From assembly GCA_030916895.1 (NCBI GenBank), contig JAUPVR010000004.1, positions 1-45,065 of the forward strand: a stretch of DNA of 45,065 bases. Reading direction: 5' to 3'. The notes under the pieces were generated by a model. That model saw only the letters and a program-made list of their open reading frames with translations, made no database searches and was not told the DNA's origin. This DNA comes from Patescibacteria group bacterium. GTDB taxonomy: Bacteria > Patescibacteriota > Minisyncoccia > Phycocordibacterales > UBA5272. Below are positions 9,860-45,045 of this stretch, one piece after another (position 1 is the stretch's first letter; each line of letters opens with the position of its first letter). A program made the translations under genes and the position numbers.

Positions 9860-10333
9860 TTATACAAAAATAATTTGTACACCATCTGTTTGTGCGCGTT
9901 CATAGAACTGTCCAACAGTGAGAATGCCATCCAAATCGTCTCGCATATCTTCTTTCTTTAGTTTAAACATATCCATTGCAAGCTTGCATCCGTAGAGTTT
10001 ACCGCCAGCGGCTTTAATCATATCCAAAAACTCAGGAACTGGAGGGATATCGAGCTCCTCCATACCCTTCATCATCATCGATGTTGCGAGTGCTTCCATA
10101 CCAGGAACAGCTCCAACGATGGTTGGAATGTGCATGGCTGGGTTACCGACAGTTGCAACATGTAAATGTTTTGCCTTTTCTTTGTGGATGGCCTCAAGCC
10201 CGAAGAAGGTGAAGAACATTTCTGCTTCCATTCCTTCGGAAAGGGCTCCGTTTGCAAGAACAAGGGAGGCGTAGACACTCTCAATTGTTGCTTTTGAGTT
10301 AATAACGAGAACGCGTTTTAGTTTTTTATCCAT
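9860..10333 (-). CDS. DsrE2/DsrE-like sulfur-carrier (DsrE/DsrF/DrsH-like family)
   Basis: AEMFFTFFGL and KLYGCKLAMDMF (conserved Cys) motifs of DsrE2/YrkE-type proteins. Confidence 0.85.
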   Translation of the reverse strand: MDKKLKRVLVINSKATIESVYASLVLANGALSEGMEAEMFFTFFGLEAIHKEKAKHLHVATVGNPAMHIPTIVGAVPGMEALATSMMMKGMEELDIPPVPEFLDMIKAAGGKLYGCKLAMDMFKLKKEDMRDDLDGILTVGQFYERAQTDGVQIIFV

Positions 10334-10351
10334 AATAATTAAAATTATTTT

Positions 10352-10663
10352 TTATAAACAGCTCATTGGCTTCATAATGCCTGCGATTTTTGAGGCATTT
10401 TTAAGGGGTCCCCCTGGAAATAGCGCATAAAATTCCTTAATGTCGACAAGTCCTGAAGATCCAACTTGGCGAATGGAGAGATGTGTTCCACCTGCATCCT
10501 GGTCGCGTAACCATTTGATGACTGCCCAATGTTTTTCTGTTAAGTCGTTAATACCCAGTTCTTTTGCAATTTCTTTGGCAATGTCTTCATTCCAATCACC
10601 CTTGTTGGTGAGGTATCCTTCCTCATTTACATCTACTTCTTTATTGGCAATAGTTTTTAGCAT
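10352..10663 (-). CDS. tusE: TusE/DsrC-family sulfur relay protein (single C-terminal Cys)
   Basis: EEGYL..DWNED.A, LTEKHWAVI, LFPGGP..NASKIAG.MKPMSCL. The penultimate Cys is present. The second DsrC Cys is replaced by Ser. Confidence 0.85.
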   Translation of the reverse strand: MLKTIANKEVDVNEEGYLTNKGDWNEDIAKEIAKELGINDLTEKHWAVIKWLRDQDAGGTHLSIRQVGSSGLVDIKEFYALFPGGPLKNASKIAGIMKPMSCL

Positions 10664-10668
10664 AATTT

Positions 10669-11925
10669 TTATTTCTTAATTTTCTTTCCGGCTAAAGGCA
10701 CACCTGGGCCGACAAAAGGAATCGATAATCCGCGCATCAGCACATTCCAGTATATATAGCGGAAGGCTAATTTGCCTAGGTGGTTTATCACCGTTGGTTT
10801 GAGTAAAGAGAATGGTCCAATAAAGGGGAGGGGAAATGTTCCTTCAACTGGTTCAATGTCGTAACCAAAATCAACTAAGAGAGCTTTCCCATCTCCTGAT
10901 TCTACGTAACAGTTTGCATGACCATCAAATTTCGCCGAAAGAGGTTTACCCTCAAGAAAACTCAAGATATTTTCTTCTAAGATTTCTGCTTCAAAATGAG
11001 CAACAGAGCCTGCTTTTGATGCTGGAATATTTGTTGCGTCACCAATAACAAAGATATTTTCATGACCGGTTGCTTGGAGGGTGTTTTTATCAGTCGGGAT
11101 GAAATTAAGTTCATCACCAAGACCTGAACGCGCAATGAGTGCGTCACCCATATTCGGTGGGATAGTCACAAGAAGGTCAAAAGGAACAGTTTTTTCATCG
11201 TAAGAACGAATAATATTTTCCTTTGCATCAACCTCTGAGATGGAGAAATCGGGTACAAGTTTAATATTTCTTTCTGAGAGCATGCCCCCCAAAACGCGCG
11301 ATGCTTCTGGTTTTGTAAAGGCACCTGAAAGTGGTGTAACATAAGTTATTTCCACCTTATCACGCATATTTTTTTTCTTGAAAAAGTCATCTGCAAGGAA
11401 AGAAAACTCAAGCGGAGCCACAGGGCACTTAATGGGCATCTCTGAGATGTGGATGACAAGTTTTCCACCGGGCCAGTCCTTGAGTGTGTTGTAGAGAGCA
11501 TTTGCGCCCTCAAACGTATAGAATTCATGCATATTTTTTCGCCACCTGTCGCCTATAAGGTTTGGAATTTGCTCAGGAGCAACTTGTGCTCCTGTTGCGA
11601 TGATGAGGATATCGTATGGCAGAACTTCACCAATATGAAGCACTATCTCTTTTTTTGTTGTATCGATTTTTTCGATACTATTTTGTATATAGGTAACACC
11701 ACGTGGGATAAAGTCACTCCTTCTTTTAACAACATCTTCTCTTCCATAGACACCAAAAGGAATAAAGAGAAAACCTGGTTGGTAGTAATGTTCACTTGCT
11801 TGATCAACAAGGGTGATGTCAAGGCCGTACTTTGTTCTGTGGTTTGCTAGTTTATTTGCAATCATGGTGCCGGCAGTACCCGCACCTAAAATGAGAATTT
11901 TCTTACGTGAAGAGATTTGTTCCAT
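10669..11925 (-). CDS. sqr: Sulfide:quinone oxidoreductase, type III-like
   Basis: GAGTAG FAD motif, HYYQPGFLF, IKCPVAPLE, GDATNIPASKAGSVAH and FDGHANCYVE, giving two catalytic Cys. Confidence 0.85.
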   Translation of the reverse strand: MEQISSRKKILILGAGTAGTMIANKLANHRTKYGLDITLVDQASEHYYQPGFLFIPFGVYGREDVVKRRSDFIPRGVTYIQNSIEKIDTTKKEIVLHIGEVLPYDILIIATGAQVAPEQIPNLIGDRWRKNMHEFYTFEGANALYNTLKDWPGGKLVIHISEMPIKCPVAPLEFSFLADDFFKKKNMRDKVEITYVTPLSGAFTKPEASRVLGGMLSERNIKLVPDFSISEVDAKENIIRSYDEKTVPFDLLVTIPPNMGDALIARSGLGDELNFIPTDKNTLQATGHENIFVIGDATNIPASKAGSVAHFEAEILEENILSFLEGKPLSAKFDGHANCYVESGDGKALLVDFGYDIEPVEGTFPLPFIGPFSLLKPTVINHLGKLAFRYIYWNVLMRGLSIPFVGPGVPLAGKKIKK

Positions 11926-11984
11926 GTAGTTTATGTTTTGGTTACTAATTTAGTTAGTTTATCACGCAATTTTTTCATGCACAG

Positions 11985-12013
11985 TTGACAGAAAGATTTC
12001 CAGGGTGTAACAT
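11985..12013 (+). promoter_or_regulatory. sigma70 promoter of the ArsR-grx-rhodanese operon (leaderless)
   Basis: TTGACA (11985-11990), 17 nt, TAACAT (12008-12013), then ATG 6 nt later. Confidence 0.7.
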
Positions 12014-12032
12014 TCAAATATGCATTTGAATG
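12011..12032. promoter_or_regulatory. ArsR/SmtB-type operator palindrome
   Basis: Perfect 9-4-9 inverted repeat CATTCAAAT-ATGC-ATTTGAATG overlapping the -10 box and the regulator start codon. Confidence 0.7.
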
Positions 12033-12298
12033 AAATAGCAACAACCATGAAGACAGTCGGGGAAGAGAGTAGGCTTAAGATACTCTGTACCCTCTTTGAA
12101 CACAAAAAAATATGTGTCTCCGATATTGCCTCTTCCCTTGGTATGAGTGTGGCAATTGTTTCTCACCACTTACAGGTATTGGAGAAAAAAGGTGTGCTTA
12201 CACATACAAGGAAGGGGAAGACCGTTTGCTATGACCTCTCAAATGAGCCAATTGTTAAAGATCTTAAGAAATTTATCTGTAAATATAAACAACCATAA
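12020..12298 (+). CDS. ArsR/SmtB family transcriptional regulator (BigR/SqrR-like Cys pattern)
   Basis: wHTH pattern RLKIL...VSDIASSLGMS...VSHHLQVL...G...RKGK.V.Y. Cys23 and Cys87 are placed like the BigR/SqrR sensing pair. Confidence 0.88.
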   Translation: MHLNEIATTMKTVGEESRLKILCTLFEHKKICVSDIASSLGMSVAIVSHHLQVLEKKGVLTHTRKGKTVCYDLSNEPIVKDLKKFICKYKQP

Positions 12299-12303
12299 AT
12301 ACT

Positions 12304-12555
12304 ATGAACACAATGAATAATTCAGTTACTGTTTACTCAACACCAACATGCCATTACTGCACCATGGCAAAAAATTTCTTCAAAACTCACAATGTTCCCT
12401 TTAAGGATGTTGATGTGAGTAAGAGTCGTGAGTCGGCAATGGAAATGATGATGAAGTCTGGTCAAATGGGAGTGCCTGTTGTCGATATTAATAGCAAGAT
12501 TATCGTTGGATTTGACCCGAACGCTTTTACTGACCTCCTTGGTCTTAAGAAATAG
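12304..12555 (+). CDS. Glutaredoxin-like protein (NrdH/YruB type)
   Basis: VYSTPTCHYC active site, SGQMGVPVV cis-Pro loop, IIVGFD. Confidence 0.92.
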   Translation: MNTMNNSVTVYSTPTCHYCTMAKNFFKTHNVPFKDVDVSKSRESAMEMMMKSGQMGVPVVDINSKIIVGFDPNAFTDLLGLKK

Positions 12556-12569
12556 TAAACACCAAAAAC

Positions 12570-12986
12570 ATGAAAAAGAATTTTATATACGTTATTGGAC
12601 TTACAATACTTGTTGGTGGTTTTCTGTATGTTTCTTCCCTCGAAAAGGAAGTGACATCGACTTCTGAAAAAGTAATTAAGCATGTGACGTTTGATGAAGG
12701 TGTGCAGGTTATTGCAGGGAACCCATCAATGGTGATTCTTGATGTGAGGACACCGGAAGAATATGCTCAAGGACACTTGGCGGGGGCGATTAATGTAAAC
12801 GTAGAAAGCGGTACGTTTGATGAAGAGATTTCAAAGCTTGATAAAAATACTTCTTATTTTGTATATTGTCGTAGCGGAAGGAGAAGTGCTGTAGCAGTAA
12901 GTCGTATGAAGGATTTAAGTTTTTCTTCAACGTATAATCTCCTTGGAGGAATTCAAAGTATAAATCCAACAAGTCTAGTGCGCTAG
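12570..12986 (+). CDS. Rhodanese-domain sulfurtransferase with N-terminal signal/TM anchor
   Basis: ILDVRTPEEY..GHLAGA and active site YCRSGRRS. Basic-hydrophobic N-terminus. Confidence 0.9.
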   Translation: MKKNFIYVIGLTILVGGFLYVSSLEKEVTSTSEKVIKHVTFDEGVQVIAGNPSMVILDVRTPEEYAQGHLAGAINVNVESGTFDEEISKLDKNTSYFVYCRSGRRSAVAVSRMKDLSFSSTYNLLGGIQSINPTSLVR

Positions 12987-41736: not shown

Positions 41737-41753
41737 GTCGAGGCGTGTCGAAA

Positions 41754-41788
41754 GTTTCTAAACCCTAGTCCCTAAAACCTAATCCCTA
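41754..41788 (+). repeat. Five tandem degenerate heptamers (nnnCCTA)
   Basis: GTTTCTA AACCCTA GTCCCTA AAACCTA ATCCCTA. Same family as the arrays flanking 42926-43279. Confidence 0.8.
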
Positions 41789-41807: not shown

Positions 41808-42608
41808 ATGAAGCTAGCAAAATCAGACTCTAATAAACCAAAAAATACTGAAACCTCGTGGGGAAATGTTGCATCATGGTATGACACACACCTTGAAAAA
41901 ACAGGCGACACGTATCATGAAAAAGTGGTGTATCCGAACCTCGCTCGATTGTTAGGTGACATGAAAGGAAAGCATGTACTTGATCTTGCGTGTGGACAAG
42001 GGCAATTCTCTCGTTTGCTTGCAGAAGCTGGAGCGTCGGTTATTGGTATTGATTTGGGAAAAGAGTTGCTCGCAATTGCGGAAAAGAAAAACAAGCCGTA
42101 CAAGTTTAAGATTTTTTATTACAATACGACAGCTCACGATTTGTATATGATAAAAGACGGCACACAAGATATTGTCGTGTGTGTGCTTGCACTTCAGAAT
42201 ATTGAAAAACTGCAAGAAACTTTAAAAGAAGTTTCTCGTGTACTTACAAAAGAAGGAAAGTTTGTGTGTGTGCTTAATCATCCGAGTTTTCGTATTCCAC
42301 GCGCAAGTGGTTGGATGTATAACGAGCATGAACAAGTACAGTATCGAAGAATTGACGCGTACCTTTCTGAATCGAAAGTAAAAATTGATATGACGCCAGG
42401 AAGTGAGAAAGATAAAAAGTTCACTGTTTCATTTCATCGTCCACTCCAGGTGTATGTGAAAGCATTTGCAAAGGCGGGGATGGCAATTACTCGTCTTGAA
42501 GAATGGGAGTCGCACAGAAAAAGTGAGAAAGGACCAAAGCAGAGACTAGAAGATAAGGCACGAAAAGAAATTCCACTGTTTATGTGCATTGAATTAAAGA
42601 AAATCTAA
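41808..42608 (+). CDS. Class I SAM-dependent methyltransferase
   Basis: VLDLACGQG motif I, GIDL, R.L...G.F, FHRPL..Y. Confidence 0.9.
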   Translation: MKLAKSDSNKPKNTETSWGNVASWYDTHLEKTGDTYHEKVVYPNLARLLGDMKGKHVLDLACGQGQFSRLLAEAGASVIGIDLGKELLAIAEKKNKPYKFKIFYYNTTAHDLYMIKDGTQDIVVCVLALQNIEKLQETLKEVSRVLTKEGKFVCVLNHPSFRIPRASGWMYNEHEQVQYRRIDAYLSESKVKIDMTPGSEKDKKFTVSFHRPLQVYVKAFAKAGMAITRLEEWESHRKSEKGPKQRLEDKARKEIPLFMCIELKKI

Positions 42609-42612
42609 AGCA

Positions 42613-42644
42613 AAGAAAGCGCGACCTTACGGTCGCGCTTTCTT
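42613..42644. terminator. Bidirectional terminator
   Basis: AAGAAAGCGCGACC-ttac-GGTCGCGCTTTCTT perfect inverted repeat between convergent genes. Confidence 0.8.
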
Positions 42645-42653
42645 ATTGGTACT

Positions 42654-42881
42654 TTACTTTTCAAACAATCCTTGCAATTCTTTCTGATACTTCTTCATCA
42701 CATCAAGTGCCGCGTACATTTCTGGTTTGCCTTGCTTTTTCAAAACATCAATTTCTTTTGCAATCTTTTCAAAAAGTTTTGGGTCTTTTTCAACCGCCGT
42801 TCGTAGCATTTCTTGTTGCTCTTTTGGAAGGTTGCGTGAACCAAATTTTACTGCCTGTTTTAGGAAAAAATCTTTGAACAT
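42654..42881 (-). CDS. Small helical hypothetical protein (75 aa)
   Basis: Clean ORF ending at the terminator. Amphipathic helical sequence (EKDPKLFEKIAKEI). Confidence 0.7.
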   Translation of the reverse strand: MFKDFFLKQAVKFGSRNLPKEQQEMLRTAVEKDPKLFEKIAKEIDVLKKQGKPEMYAALDVMKKYQKELQGLFEK

Positions 42882-42917
42882 AGGGGTAGGGGCTAGGGGT
42901 TAGTAGTTAGGGACTAG
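42881..42917 (+). repeat. Heptamer array (TAGGGRY), left flank of four-helix-bundle gene
   Basis: TAGGGG TAGGGGC TAGGGGT TAGTAGT TAGGGAC TAG. Confidence 0.85.
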
Positions 42918-42925
42918 ATAATCCT

Positions 42926-43279
42926 TTAATTTGATAATTTGCTAATCATAGCATTTAACATTTTCATGACTTCTGTGTGAAGTTTTGTAAGAGCAGTATA
43001 ATCTTCTTTTTTCAATAGTCCAAGGTCTTTCGATAATTCAATTTGTGCTTCCAATTCTGCGCCGGATCCGAAGGCAATTCTCAAAAATTGAACATATTCT
43101 TTCTTACTTCCTCTTGCATTTCCTTCGGCAATATTTGAAATAATAGAAACAGACGCTCTACGCATTTGAGAAACTAGGCCAAAAATTTCATCCTTGGGAA
43201 AATTTTTTGTTGCAGAATAAATTTTTAGAGATAACTGATATGCTTTTTGCCAAACAAACAGTTCTTTATAGGATTGCAT
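42926..43279 (-). CDS. Four helix bundle protein (23S rRNA IVP / Avd-like family)
   Basis: YKEL.VWQKA, FPKDE.FGL.SQMRRASVSI.SNIAEG..R, FL.IA.GS..EL. Confidence 0.93.
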   Translation of the reverse strand: MQSYKELFVWQKAYQLSLKIYSATKNFPKDEIFGLVSQMRRASVSIISNIAEGNARGSKKEYVQFLRIAFGSGAELEAQIELSKDLGLLKKEDYTALTKLHTEVMKMLNAMISKLSN

Positions 43280-43285
43280 GTATTT

Positions 43286-43317
43286 CCTAGTCCTTAGTCC
43301 CTATAACCTAGTCCCTA
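43286..43317 (-). repeat. Heptamer array, right flank, inverted relative to left flank
   Basis: Minus strand reads TAGGGAC TAGGTTA TAGGGAC TAAGGAC TAGG. The first TAG is the stop codon of the DsbA gene. Confidence 0.85.
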
Positions 43318-43974
43318 CTGTGCCTTTGCTTTTTTAATTAATTCATTAAATTCTTCAGGTGAACGAGGACTGTCGATTAGTTTGCCGTTTAAGAAGAAAC
43401 TTGGTGTCCCTGGGAGTTTCAAGCGTATTGCTTCTTGGTATTCTGCCATAACCTTCTTTTCAATTGCCTCACTTTTTAGATCTGCTTCAAATTTCTTTGC
43501 ATCAAGACCAAGCGATGTTGCGTAGGTGACCATCATACTGCTCGCGTTTAATGCTCCAGACCATTCAGCTTGTTTTACAAAGAGGAGATCATGCATTTCC
43601 CAGAATTTTCCTTGAACCGATGCCGCCTCGGATGCTTTTGCAGAGATGAGGGCATTTTTGTGAATTTGCATGAGTGGGAAGTGACGGAAAACGACCTTCA
43701 AATCTTGTGGGTTATCTGCAAGTACTTTTTGAATAAGTCCTTCGTATACCGCGCATGCTGGACACTGGAAGTCAGCGAATTCAACAAGGGTTACTTTTGC
43801 CGTAGGGTTACCACGAACATGATCGGTTTGTGTTACTTCAACAACACCAACAGGTTCTTGTCCGCGCGTACCAGTTACATAGAAATAATATGCGAGCACA
43901 AGCACGATAACAGCTACTAATCCGAGCACAAGTTTCATTTGTGGGGTATCTAATGATTTTGGCAATAATTTCAT
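43315..43974 (-). CDS. DsbA-family thioredoxin-fold protein with N-terminal TM
   Basis: VEFADFQCPAC, FRHFPL, GKFWEMHDLLF, GTPSFFLNG. ATG 43974 lies 9 nt after TG-C-TATAAT. Confidence 0.92.
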   Translation of the reverse strand: MKLLPKSLDTPQMKLVLGLVAVIVLVLAYYFYVTGTRGQEPVGVVEVTQTDHVRGNPTAKVTLVEFADFQCPACAVYEGLIQKVLADNPQDLKVVFRHFPLMQIHKNALISAKASEAASVQGKFWEMHDLLFVKQAEWSGALNASSMMVTYATSLGLDAKKFEADLKSEAIEKKVMAEYQEAIRLKLPGTPSFFLNGKLIDSPRSPEEFNELIKKAKAQ

Positions 43975-44052: not shown

Positions 44053-45045
44053 ATGAAGAAAAAAGCTACCAATAAAAACGAAACCATAATTTACCAGACA
44101 AAATCTGGTGCACTTGAACTTCGCGGAGATTTTAAGAAAGAAACTGTTTGGGCAAACAGAATGCAAATGGCTGAAATGTTTAATGTTAATCCACAGGCAA
44201 TATCAAAACATATTCAAAATATATATAAAGAGAAGGAATTGGAACGAAAGACAACTAGTTCCAAAATGGAACTAGTTCAAAAAGAAGGAAATAGAACAAT
44301 TTCGCGCGAAGTAGACATATATAATCTCGATATTCTCATTGCGGTTGGGTACCGAATTAATTCCGTCACAGGTACAAAATTCCGCCAGTGGGCCACAAAA
44401 ACACTTCGCGAGCACCTCACACGCGGTTATACGCTCAATAAAAAAGTTATTCTCAAAAATTACGATCAATTCATCAAGAATGTTTCAGACATTCAAGCGC
44501 TTTTGCCCGCACATGTAACACTCGACCCGAAGCAAGTTTTGGACTTGGTGAAAGAGTATTCAACCACATGGGCAAAACTTGATGCTTACGACAAGAATGC
44601 ACTCAAAACCGAAGGTGTTAGTAAAAAGAAAATCAGACTCGCTTCAGGAGAATTACTTTCGGCAATTGAAACATTCAAAAATGAACTTATCAAACAAGAC
44701 GAGGCAACAGAAATTTTTGCACAAGAACGAGCACGTGGAAACATTGAAGGAATACTTGGAAACGTCATGCAGTCATTTGGTGGAAACGACGTATACAAGA
44801 CACTTGAAGAAAAAGCGGCACATTTTTTGTATTTTATGGTAAAAAATCATCCATTTGTTGACGGCAACAAGCGAACAGGAGCTTTTACTTTTATTTGGTT
44901 TTTGCGTAGATCGGGAGTAAAAGGTGCGCGCAATATTAATCCTTCCGGACTTACCGCCATCACACTTCTCATTGCCGAAAGTGATCCACGACATAAAGAA
45001 AAATTAATTGCACTTGTGGTAGAATTGTTGCACATTAAGAAATAA
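44053..45045 (+). CDS. RhuM-like N-domain fused to Fic/Doc domain
   Basis: RhuM-type YNLD..IAVGYR.NS..G.KFRQWAT..L and Fic/Doc motif HPFVDGNKRTG. Confidence 0.9.
   Translation: MKKKATNKNETIIYQTKSGALELRGDFKKETVWANRMQMAEMFNVNPQAISKHIQNIYKEKELERKTTSSKMELVQKEGNRTISREVDIYNLDILIAVGYRINSVTGTKFRQWATKTLREHLTRGYTLNKKVILKNYDQFIKNVSDIQALLPAHVTLDPKQVLDLVKEYSTTWAKLDAYDKNALKTEGVSKKKIRLASGELLSAIETFKNELIKQDEATEIFAQERARGNIEGILGNVMQSFGGNDVYKTLEEKAAHFLYFMVKNHPFVDGNKRTGAFTFIWFLRRSGVKGARNINPSGLTAITLLIAESDPRHKEKLIALVVELLHIKK

Follow-up and report, generated by a model that had tools for sequence, protein, structure and literature searches.

The closest described relatives of the element reported here are the intervening sequences (IVS) of bacterial 23S rRNA. 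In Coxiella burnetii (helix 45), Leptospira and others, these carry an open reading frame (ORF) of the IVP/S23p family, which has been without known function since its discovery there, within the loop of an inverted-repeat stem, on the strand of the host transcript and without a promoter of its own. Parts of the published account of the Coxiella element describe a 28-bp stem, cut by RNase III, whose loop holds an ORF preceded by two to three tandem heptamers (PMC4990558). Insertions encoding 23S_rRNA_IVP are also scattered over several rRNA sites in the Candidate Phyla Radiation (CPR), according to the main text of an article in J Bacteriol from 2024 (PMC11270868), and sections of a further report place IVP genes inside cas loci (PMC3936711). 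In the present study, we analysed a stretch of 45,065 nucleotides from a Patescibacteria group bacterium (contig JAUPVR010000004.1 of assembly GCA_030916895.1; hereafter the window), in which a gene of this family lies between a DsbA-like gene and the gene of a 75-aa protein and is bracketed by inverted arrays of 7-nt units. We hold with considerable confidence that gene and arrays form a discrete, recurrent, hairpin-armed cassette, whatever its mechanism; more specifically, we lean towards an accessory cassette of the IVS type, in which the IVP gene occupies the loop of an imperfect hairpin of about 35 bp made of the inverted arrays and would be looped out in the transcript.

Like the elements of 23S rRNA, the window cassette has complementary borders with an ORF in the predicted loop, lies on the host-transcript strand and shows no promoter of its own; with the CPR insertions, as presented in the main text cited, it shares the phylum-level group and the protein family. 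Unlike the 23S rRNA elements, it sits between two protein-coding genes and not in rRNA, and an Rfam search of the 3.3-kb locus around it (L001) found no RNA gene. Its arms, moreover, are whole heptamer arrays, they provide the upstream stop and end at the downstream start, their heptamers are dispersed genome-wide, and cleavage is here a proposal. The main text on the CPR insertions, which deals with rRNA genes only, does not contain the terms "inverted repeat", "heptam" or "tandem repeat" (PMC11270868). Our literature search of article full texts returned no description of heptamer-armed cassettes in operons or of a link to dispersed arrays. IVP genes in rRNA insertions are already known; a heptamer-armed operon cassette tied to dispersed arrays we did not find described.

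At its borders (Table 1), the cassette is joined very closely to both neighbours. The DsbA-like gene runs through GCA CAG into its stop TAG (43317-43315), which is at the same time the opening triplet of the 5' arm; TAC separates the last 5' unit (43283) from the ATG of the cassette gene, the TAA of this gene is followed by AGGATTATC (nine bases) and then by the first 3'-arm unit, TAGTCCC, and the 3' arm abuts the ATG of the 75-aa gene with no spacer. Because TAG or TAA recurs every 7 nt in the 5' arm, all three frames carry stops, and an AGGA within this arm lies 8 nt before the ATG of the cassette gene. Tandem Repeats Finder described positions 43286-43317 as a repeat of period 7 with 4.6 copies. 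An earlier note on this DNA had already recognized the DsbA stop as the first array triplet and the complementary array as ending at the next ATG, in which it was right, and its coordinates of arms, gene, stop and start, in a minus-strand reading, are correct to within one base. It had also stated that the window holds no transposase or reverse transcriptase, and Pfam scans of 44 + 5 window ORFs gave neither family. A consensus scan of the minus strand for promoters and terminators across the dsbA, IVP and 75-aa genes yielded nothing above chance within the unit; the hairpin that follows the 75-aa gene is likely the terminator of the whole transcription unit of dsbA, cassette and 75-aa gene. 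Profile searches of the 75-aa protein returned no Pfam or NCBIfam family.

Table 1. Coordinates of the cassette locus, its neighbours and the solitary array in the window
Feature	Position	Strand	Remarks
Upstream host gene, DsbA-like, thioredoxin fold, 219 aa from ATG at 43974	43315..43974	-	Pfam Thioredoxin_4 E 9.8e-29, DSBA E 3.9e-20
5' arm, five heptamers: TAGGGAC TAGGTTA TAGGGAC TAAGGAC TAGGAAA	43283..43317	-	Read on the minus strand
Cassette gene, 117 aa, four-helix bundle of the 23S_rRNA_IVP / TIGR02436 family	42926..43279	-	PF05635 E 5.6e-40
3' arm, five heptamers: TAGTCCC TAACTAC TAACCCC TAGCCCC TACCCCT	42882..42916	-	Complementary to the 5' arm
Downstream host gene, 75-aa protein	42654..42881	-	ATG 42881-42879; conserved across the genus
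GC-rich hairpin with T-run, 3' of the 75-aa gene	42607..42642	-	Found by eye; not listed by the consensus terminator scan
Solo array of the same heptamer family, C-type: CTAAACC CTAGTCC CTAAAAC CTAATCC CTA	41754..41788	+	13-19 nt upstream of methyltransferase start

The behaviour of the cassette as a unit is seen at its orthologous sites. The 75-aa gene is present in 52 of 53 genomes of the genus, and dsbA stands directly upstream of it in all 30 loci that make up our junction set within the genus. Two of these 30 junctions, those of the window and of genome G018, hold an IVP gene; 13 are tight, with a gap of at most 13 nt (e.g., TAAatATG), and 15 have a gap of 18-128 nt. A third carrier at the same site, G021 (locus L003), lies outside the set. 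On the tree built from the DsbA and 75-aa proteins, the three carriers are scattered, so that three changes are needed, at least two of them forced by well-supported branches, and the sister genome of the window's own (G063) is without the gene. Each of the three cassettes has its own heptamer, TAGGGAC in the window, TAGTGGC in G021 and GGTTGTAGG in G018, and the IVP gene of G018 is a pseudogene with an internal TAA. Among the 15 longer gaps, solo C-type arrays occur in L043, L053 and L034 and a gene-less inverted pair in L044. Of 17 loci with a gap of at least 18 nt, 11 end dsbA with TAG, all carriers and scar loci among them, and 3 of the 13 tight junctions do so, which is a small hint that would fit an array supplying the stop. 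Comparison of the cassette borders with the empty sites showed no direct repeat. With 13 of 30 orthologous junctions tight, the locus is not simply conserved by vertical descent, and the idea of the earlier note that gene and arrays are a self-contained insertion unit is upheld by the empty sites, the scattered carriers, the loci of the same layout elsewhere (26 + 79, see below) and a copy in 16S rRNA.

Contigs of four other sequencing runs (X5-X8; soil and sludge metagenomes), compared over window positions 42737-43969, cover the cassette and stop at the arrays; a contig spanning an empty site was not among them. In contigs from three other studies the IVP region is 98-99% identical to the window (differences 10/562, 4/373 and 2/200), as against 92-96% for dsbA in the same contigs (differences 51/646 and 17/256). 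This contrast gives a weak hint that the cassette might be exchanged through its arms or that the gene might be under strong constraint. A small dispersed element with GAAGATGTCGTAAGCCAGTAGGCGTCGAC inside a GTCGA...TCGAC inverted repeat, found in the window's genome at C9:2521, C9:3492 (-) and C29:17373 and in part at about 41738-41758 of the window, lies in G063 at the junction of dsbA and the 75-aa gene (L032, about 1382-1530), between two 28-bp direct copies of the 5' end of the 75-aa gene. In other genomes, the methyltransferase gene stands upstream of dsbA.

Beyond this site, the arrangement of arm, gene and arm recurs widely. Two sets of loci were compared, namely 41 related genomes, with 27 IVP ORFs with flanks of which 26 were measurable on both sides, and a wide set of one genome per species, in which at least 591 relatives were found and the best 80 were used, 79 of them with both flanks; the two sets together gave 105 loci. 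PF05635 genes are present in 24 of the 41 related genomes, in 0-8 copies each. In the 26 loci of the relatives, the upstream flank had an identity of 0.44 and the downstream flank one of 0.43 at a lag of 7 nt, other lags giving 0.24-0.31, and the duplex of the two cognate arms had a mean energy of -33.8 kcal/mol, against -19.8 (sd 7.2) for non-cognate arms. By its record labels, the wide set spans Patescibacteria, Gammaproteobacteria, Clostridia, Bacteroidota, Fibrobacter, Nitrospirae, Desulfobacterota, Acidobacteria, Planctomycetota and others, and Flavobacterium, Winogradskyella, Lacinutrix and Faecalibacter are also represented in it; among its 79 loci, 50 upstream and 46 downstream arms fitted a lag of 7 best, and 19 and 14 a lag of 8, and the cognate duplex (mean -45.8 kcal/mol, against -31.0 for non-cognate arms) was the best of 13 in 36 of the 79. 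Heptamers vary from locus to locus, but within a locus one arm matches the other. The complementary periodic arms, which the earlier note had seen at one gene, are found again at the 26 + 79 loci of its homologues. In a relative (G040, locus L021), a 16S rRNA gene (RF00177, 549 bits) contains a cassette with CTGGAAN arms on its own strand, which makes a direct likeness to the rRNA IVS. An Rfam search of 20 wide-set loci with atypical neighbours detected no RNA gene, so none of these is an rRNA or tRNA context. Period-8 arms occur in a minority of wide-set cassettes (L084, L103 and others), an example being CCTCCTAA, nine times, in L084.

Orientation is shared as well. Among the relatives the upstream neighbour is co-oriented with the IVP gene in 25 of 25 cases and the downstream neighbour in 23 of 25 (about 12 distinct sites); in the wide set, on crude ORF calls, the figures are 62/74 and 60/74. 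Over the 105 loci, the 5' flank has a GC skew of +0.29 and the 3' flank one of -0.30, TAG is found 291 times upstream and 74 times downstream, CTA 103 times upstream and 290 times downstream, and stops in all three frames occur in 65 upstream flanks versus 37 downstream. The G/TAG-rich arm comes 5', that is, G-first on both counts, in 66 of the 105 loci, and the order is reversed in 2. A G-first hairpin is the same on both strands, so this polarity belongs to the hairpin and not to the direction of the gene; it places stop-rich, purine-rich sequence before any gene in the loop. Co-orientation and fixed arm polarity together are compatible with a role in RNA or in translation. Reversed polarity was seen in a cassette of G007 (L156, G007:C19, 805-1244) that holds a divergent PF05635 gene of 120 aa (E 2e-11) between nusB-NUDIX and an RNase III gene; its arms are complementary and of period 7, with CTAA units first and TTAG units after.

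We then come to the pairing of the window arms themselves. In an inverted-repeat search, the arms gave pairs of 37, 23 and 15 nt, with a complementarity of 70%, 74% and 87%, respectively; as their registers differ by 7, 14 and 21 nt, the pairing in several registers is real, just as the earlier note had read from the letters. The duplex of the two arms has an energy of -31.8 kcal/mol, compared with -18.2 +/- 3.6 in 1000 shuffles of the 3' arm (z -3.8), and 2 of the 1000 shuffled arms reached the energy of the window duplex. In the minimum-energy fold of the 467-nt transcript, the 3' arm pairs with the 5' arm and closes the structure, so a stable arm duplex is predicted. Of 21 loci, 17 have the stop within the predicted duplex and 16 the start, which are rough figures in view of added weak outer pairs and crude start calls. 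RNase III is encoded in the window's own genome (G000; 660 kb, 93% complete).

From these data we propose the following course of events. The cassette, which has been inserted into a tight operon junction between dsbA and the 75-aa gene and has no recognisable promoter or terminator of its own, would be transcribed by read-through from dsbA. Its 5' arm would supply the dsbA stop, stops in three frames and a purine-rich ribosome-binding stretch for the gene in the loop. In the transcript the arms may pair and loop the gene out, with the dsbA stop and the 75-aa start enclosed in one helix; this helix might be opened by ribosomes terminating at the TAG, which would preserve the translational coupling of the empty sites, and/or be cut by RNase III, as in the 23S rRNA IVS. 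Spread and loss would take place at the level of DNA, recombination between arrays of one family being the simplest candidate route, and hairpins without a gene, like solitary arms, would be what is left after decay. The RNA-level mechanism is the one we prefer, although, taken by itself, we find it nearly balanced between belief and doubt, with doubt slightly ahead.

Several observations weigh against this proposal. The fold of the whole 467-nt transcript is no better than that of shuffled sequences (z -0.75). The sense duplex was more stable than the antisense duplex in 11 of 26 loci of the relatives (p 0.32) and in 44 of 78 of the wide set (p 0.28); the arms thus show no sense-strand G·U bias, and no sign can be detected that the sense RNA has been selected for pairing that tolerates G·U. 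A search for RNA runs containing the locus returned none. Under a strict test of periodicity (identity of no less than 75% across 21 nt at a lag of 7 or 8, with windows 320 nt further out as controls), 19 of 100 loci passed with both arms and 64 with one arm or both, against 0 and 3 of 100 in the controls, a shortfall which means that many arrays are short or degenerate. Arrays also persist in genomes in which no IVP gene was detected (20 in G029, 21 in G036, and 14-21 in some complete genomes), so they need no resident gene, and 20-80 arrays per gene is a high number for pure products of decay. The suggestion of the earlier note that the unit is folded out, processed or mobilised at the RNA level has accordingly fared unevenly: an insertion unit with the build of an rRNA IVS stands, and for its RNA-level part the test of G·U strand asymmetry gave no support.

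The arrays are not confined to cassettes. On this point the earlier note needs correction, as it missed that they form a family spread over the genome: a second array lies in the window itself, between the stop of a penicillin-binding protein gene and the methyltransferase start, with neither a partner arm nor an IVP gene, and G000 has 13 TAGGGAC-type arrays by a strict rule, under which five shuffles gave 0-1, and about 23 by a looser one. The heptamers of other genomes' cassettes gave 0-6 arrays in G000, the highest numbers coming from units within two changes of TAGGGAC. The dimer TAGGGACTAGGGAC, with at most one mismatch, occurs 17 times in G000, five times each in G016, G018 and the sister G063, once or twice in five genomes, and not at all in 33 of 42. 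In G027, likewise, dispersed arrays use the heptamers of the genome's own cassettes, TAGTGAG/TAGTGGG and TAGTAAG/TAGTTAG being found at cassettes and at solo sites. Over 41 genomes, a pattern of TAG every 7 nt (four units) had a median of 31 hits where PF05635 is present (n=24) versus 3 where it is not (n=17), and array and IVP gene counts were correlated with a Spearman rho of 0.77, a value that overstates independence since the genomes are related.

In G000, 11 arrays lie at most 13 nt before a start codon with the C-type arm in the sense direction, one ambiguous case being opposite, and arms of the G type stand after stops, mostly with a terminator behind them. Among the genes next to these arrays are ruvA|rpsT, secD|secF, sodA, clpB, nusA, rpsB|tsf, map and dnaB. 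At C15:1659-1750 an arm pair lacks a gene, and its 37-nt loop opens with AAATACATG, a 9-mer that spans the start of the window's cassette gene; this remnant, AAATACATG, together with the scars at the dsbA junction, points to the decay of cassettes into hairpins and solo arms. One TAGGGAC-type array of G000 (C8:1344-1371, L145) runs in frame within the ORF of a class-V aminotransferase, and the only unit that would put TAG in frame there reads TGG instead. Tandem 7-nt intergenic units are long known as the short tandemly repeated repetitive (STRR) sequences of cyanobacteria, whose function is unexplained. The STRR1 unit resembles the ACTGGGG/ACTAGGG units among the arrays of this analysis, and our literature search found no printed link between STRR heptamers and IVP genes.

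The protein of the cassette belongs clearly to its family, with 136.3 bits for PF05635 (cut-off 33.8), 140.8 bits for NF008911 (cut-off 137) and 131 bits for TIGR02436 (cut-off 24), and it is the single PF05635 match in G000. Its conserved core reads S-x-x-S-N-I-A-E-G, in which N49, I50, A51, E52 and G53 are invariant among 25 aligned relatives. It matches PDB 2gsc, a solved pentamer, with E 2.4e-19, so that a pentamer may be predicted for it as well. The cassette protein is under purifying selection: dN/dS of IVP genes is 0.075-0.14 in five related pairs, with dS near saturation and two further pairs not computable. Searches with Pfam, NCBIfam and PADLOC gave no nuclease or recombinase family for it, and PADLOC no defence-family match. 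Like Avd, the accessory protein of diversity-generating retroelements (DGR), it has a homologous fold, and its scores for the two models remain below the cut-offs (Pfam bAvd, 38.6 bits with a cut-off of 40; NCBIfam Avd, 38.7 with a cut-off of 80). Unlike a DGR Avd, it has no adjacent reverse transcriptase and no template or variable repeats, the sole reverse transcriptase of G000 lies on another contig, and the presence of reverse transcriptases in the 41 genomes does not follow IVP; the gene is thus not a member of a DGR.

The main rival to the looped-out cassette places the events in DNA. Repetitive extragenic palindromic (REP) sequences and REPINs offer the model, in which a single-copy gene of a REP-associated tyrosine transposase (RAYT) is flanked by inverted short repeats whose family is dispersed intergenically, each genome having its own cognate family; RAYTs are HUH Y1 transposases. 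By analogy, the arrays would work as DNA, in the form of cruciforms or single-strand hairpins, and would reach new intergenic sites by copying or recombination; the IVP pentamer would serve them as a nucleic-acid-binding accessory in the manner of a RAYT, and pairing in RNA would be incidental. The flank repeats of the window are, as in the REP/REPIN-RAYT case, dispersed in G000 and genome-specific; dispersed arrays share the heptamer family of the genome's own cassette in G000 and G027, array numbers track IVP numbers over the 41 genomes, the sense-strand bias in G·U was not seen, and the contrast between the IVP region and dsbA in contigs that break at the arrays fits an exchange through the arms. 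Unlike a RAYT, however, IVP is a four-helix bundle without a nuclease, recombinase or other catalytic family, and PF01797 has no match in G000, at its given completeness. The HUH Y1 family was not found in G000, G019 (237 array hits), G014, G016 or G018, reverse transcriptase does not track the arrays, up to 21 arrays occur in genomes with no detected IVP gene, and the near-universal co-orientation and the G/TAG-first polarity are left unexplained. On balance we regard a purely DNA-level hairpin element as rather unlikely, although it deserves to be kept in sight.

It may also be asked whether IVP is a regulator acting in trans, with the arrays as its putative binding sites in mRNA or DNA at the starts and stops of housekeeping genes and with autoregulation at its own gene. 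One gene with many sites of one heptamer family, a protein under purifying selection, 11 arrays of the same C-type sense orientation close upstream of starts, and neighbours such as rpsT, rpsB, tsf, nusA, clpB, secF and sodA would all suit such a role. The orientation near starts, however, would result of itself from G-first hairpins that have kept the 3' arm, arrays are present in genomes without the gene, the gene is dispensable (absent from 17 of the 41 relatives and a pseudogene in G018), and arrays come and go at orthologous sites, all of which makes a regulator improbable to us. As for mere coincidence, i.e., ordinary intergenic repeats or terminator-like filler around an unrelated small gene, arrays are indeed common in intergenic regions of G000 without any IVP gene. 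Such an account is nevertheless scarcely credible when 26 + 79 other loci are bracketed by complementary periodic arms, each with its own heptamer, when either arm is periodic in 3 of 100 control windows, and when an orthologous site either has the cassette as a whole or lacks it.

Returning to the IVS-type cassette, we see its interest in the fact that the IVP gene travels with a definable nucleic-acid partner, the inverted 7-nt arrays, the sequence of which differs from copy to copy, and that the same build is met in mRNA operons, in rRNA and, decayed, at the junctions of housekeeping genes. This suggests that a more general cassette exists and that the rRNA IVS mark one of the places where it lands, and it may explain the origin of dispersed heptamer repeats in small genomes. 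For annotation, TAG-phased heptamer arrays at gene junctions can serve as flags for cassette scars. A bolder extension, to which we give little credence for now, is that IVP gene and arrays are a two-part system across bacterial phyla, in which the pentamer would recognise the periodic duplex of its cognate arrays and spread or maintain operon-neutral hairpins across intergenic junctions. Three 7-nt units would then span about two helical turns of the recognised duplex, and hairpins with the G/TAG-rich arm first would stop upstream translation in every frame and loop the insert out, thereby keeping the upstream stop and the downstream start together. If true, such a system would tie together the rRNA IVS, an orphan protein family and the unexplained heptamer repeats of bacteria.

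Two enzymes were considered as partners of the arrays and rejected. RVT_1 is present in 15 of the 41 genomes and absent from the array-rich G019, G011, G014, G016 and G018; PF01797 is present in 22 of the 41, not in G000 or G019, and has no general link. For G000, the searches for transposition enzymes covered Y1_Tnp, RVT_1 and Phage_integrase. Three weak IVP-like hits lie near Y1-like genes, of which one in G031 is a true adjacency, one in G007 is separated by nusB and one in G008 is a bAvd of the DGR type. At the G031 locus (L024, G031:C4, 426-1698), a 247-aa Y1_Tnp-like gene with GCAGGTCAAACCTGC-type palindromes has the appearance of a RAYT/REP unit and stands directly downstream of a weak IVP-like gene of 143 aa (E 1.6e-3). 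The only reverse transcriptase of G000 (C10:29310-30014, L062) is an orphan of 437 aa between SMC-type and RNase R genes, and neither Avd nor repeats were noted nearby.

Elsewhere in the window, a gene divergent from dsbA (44053-45045, plus strand) encodes a 330-aa RhuM/Fic-domain protein, which PADLOC assigns to the candidate defence family PDC-S23 (E 1e-108). At 9863-12983, genes for DsrE-like and DsrC-like proteins, a pyridine-nucleotide-disulphide oxidoreductase, an ArsR-type regulator, a glutaredoxin and a rhodanese are clustered, and this cluster looks like a sulfur-relay set in a genome of 660 kb.

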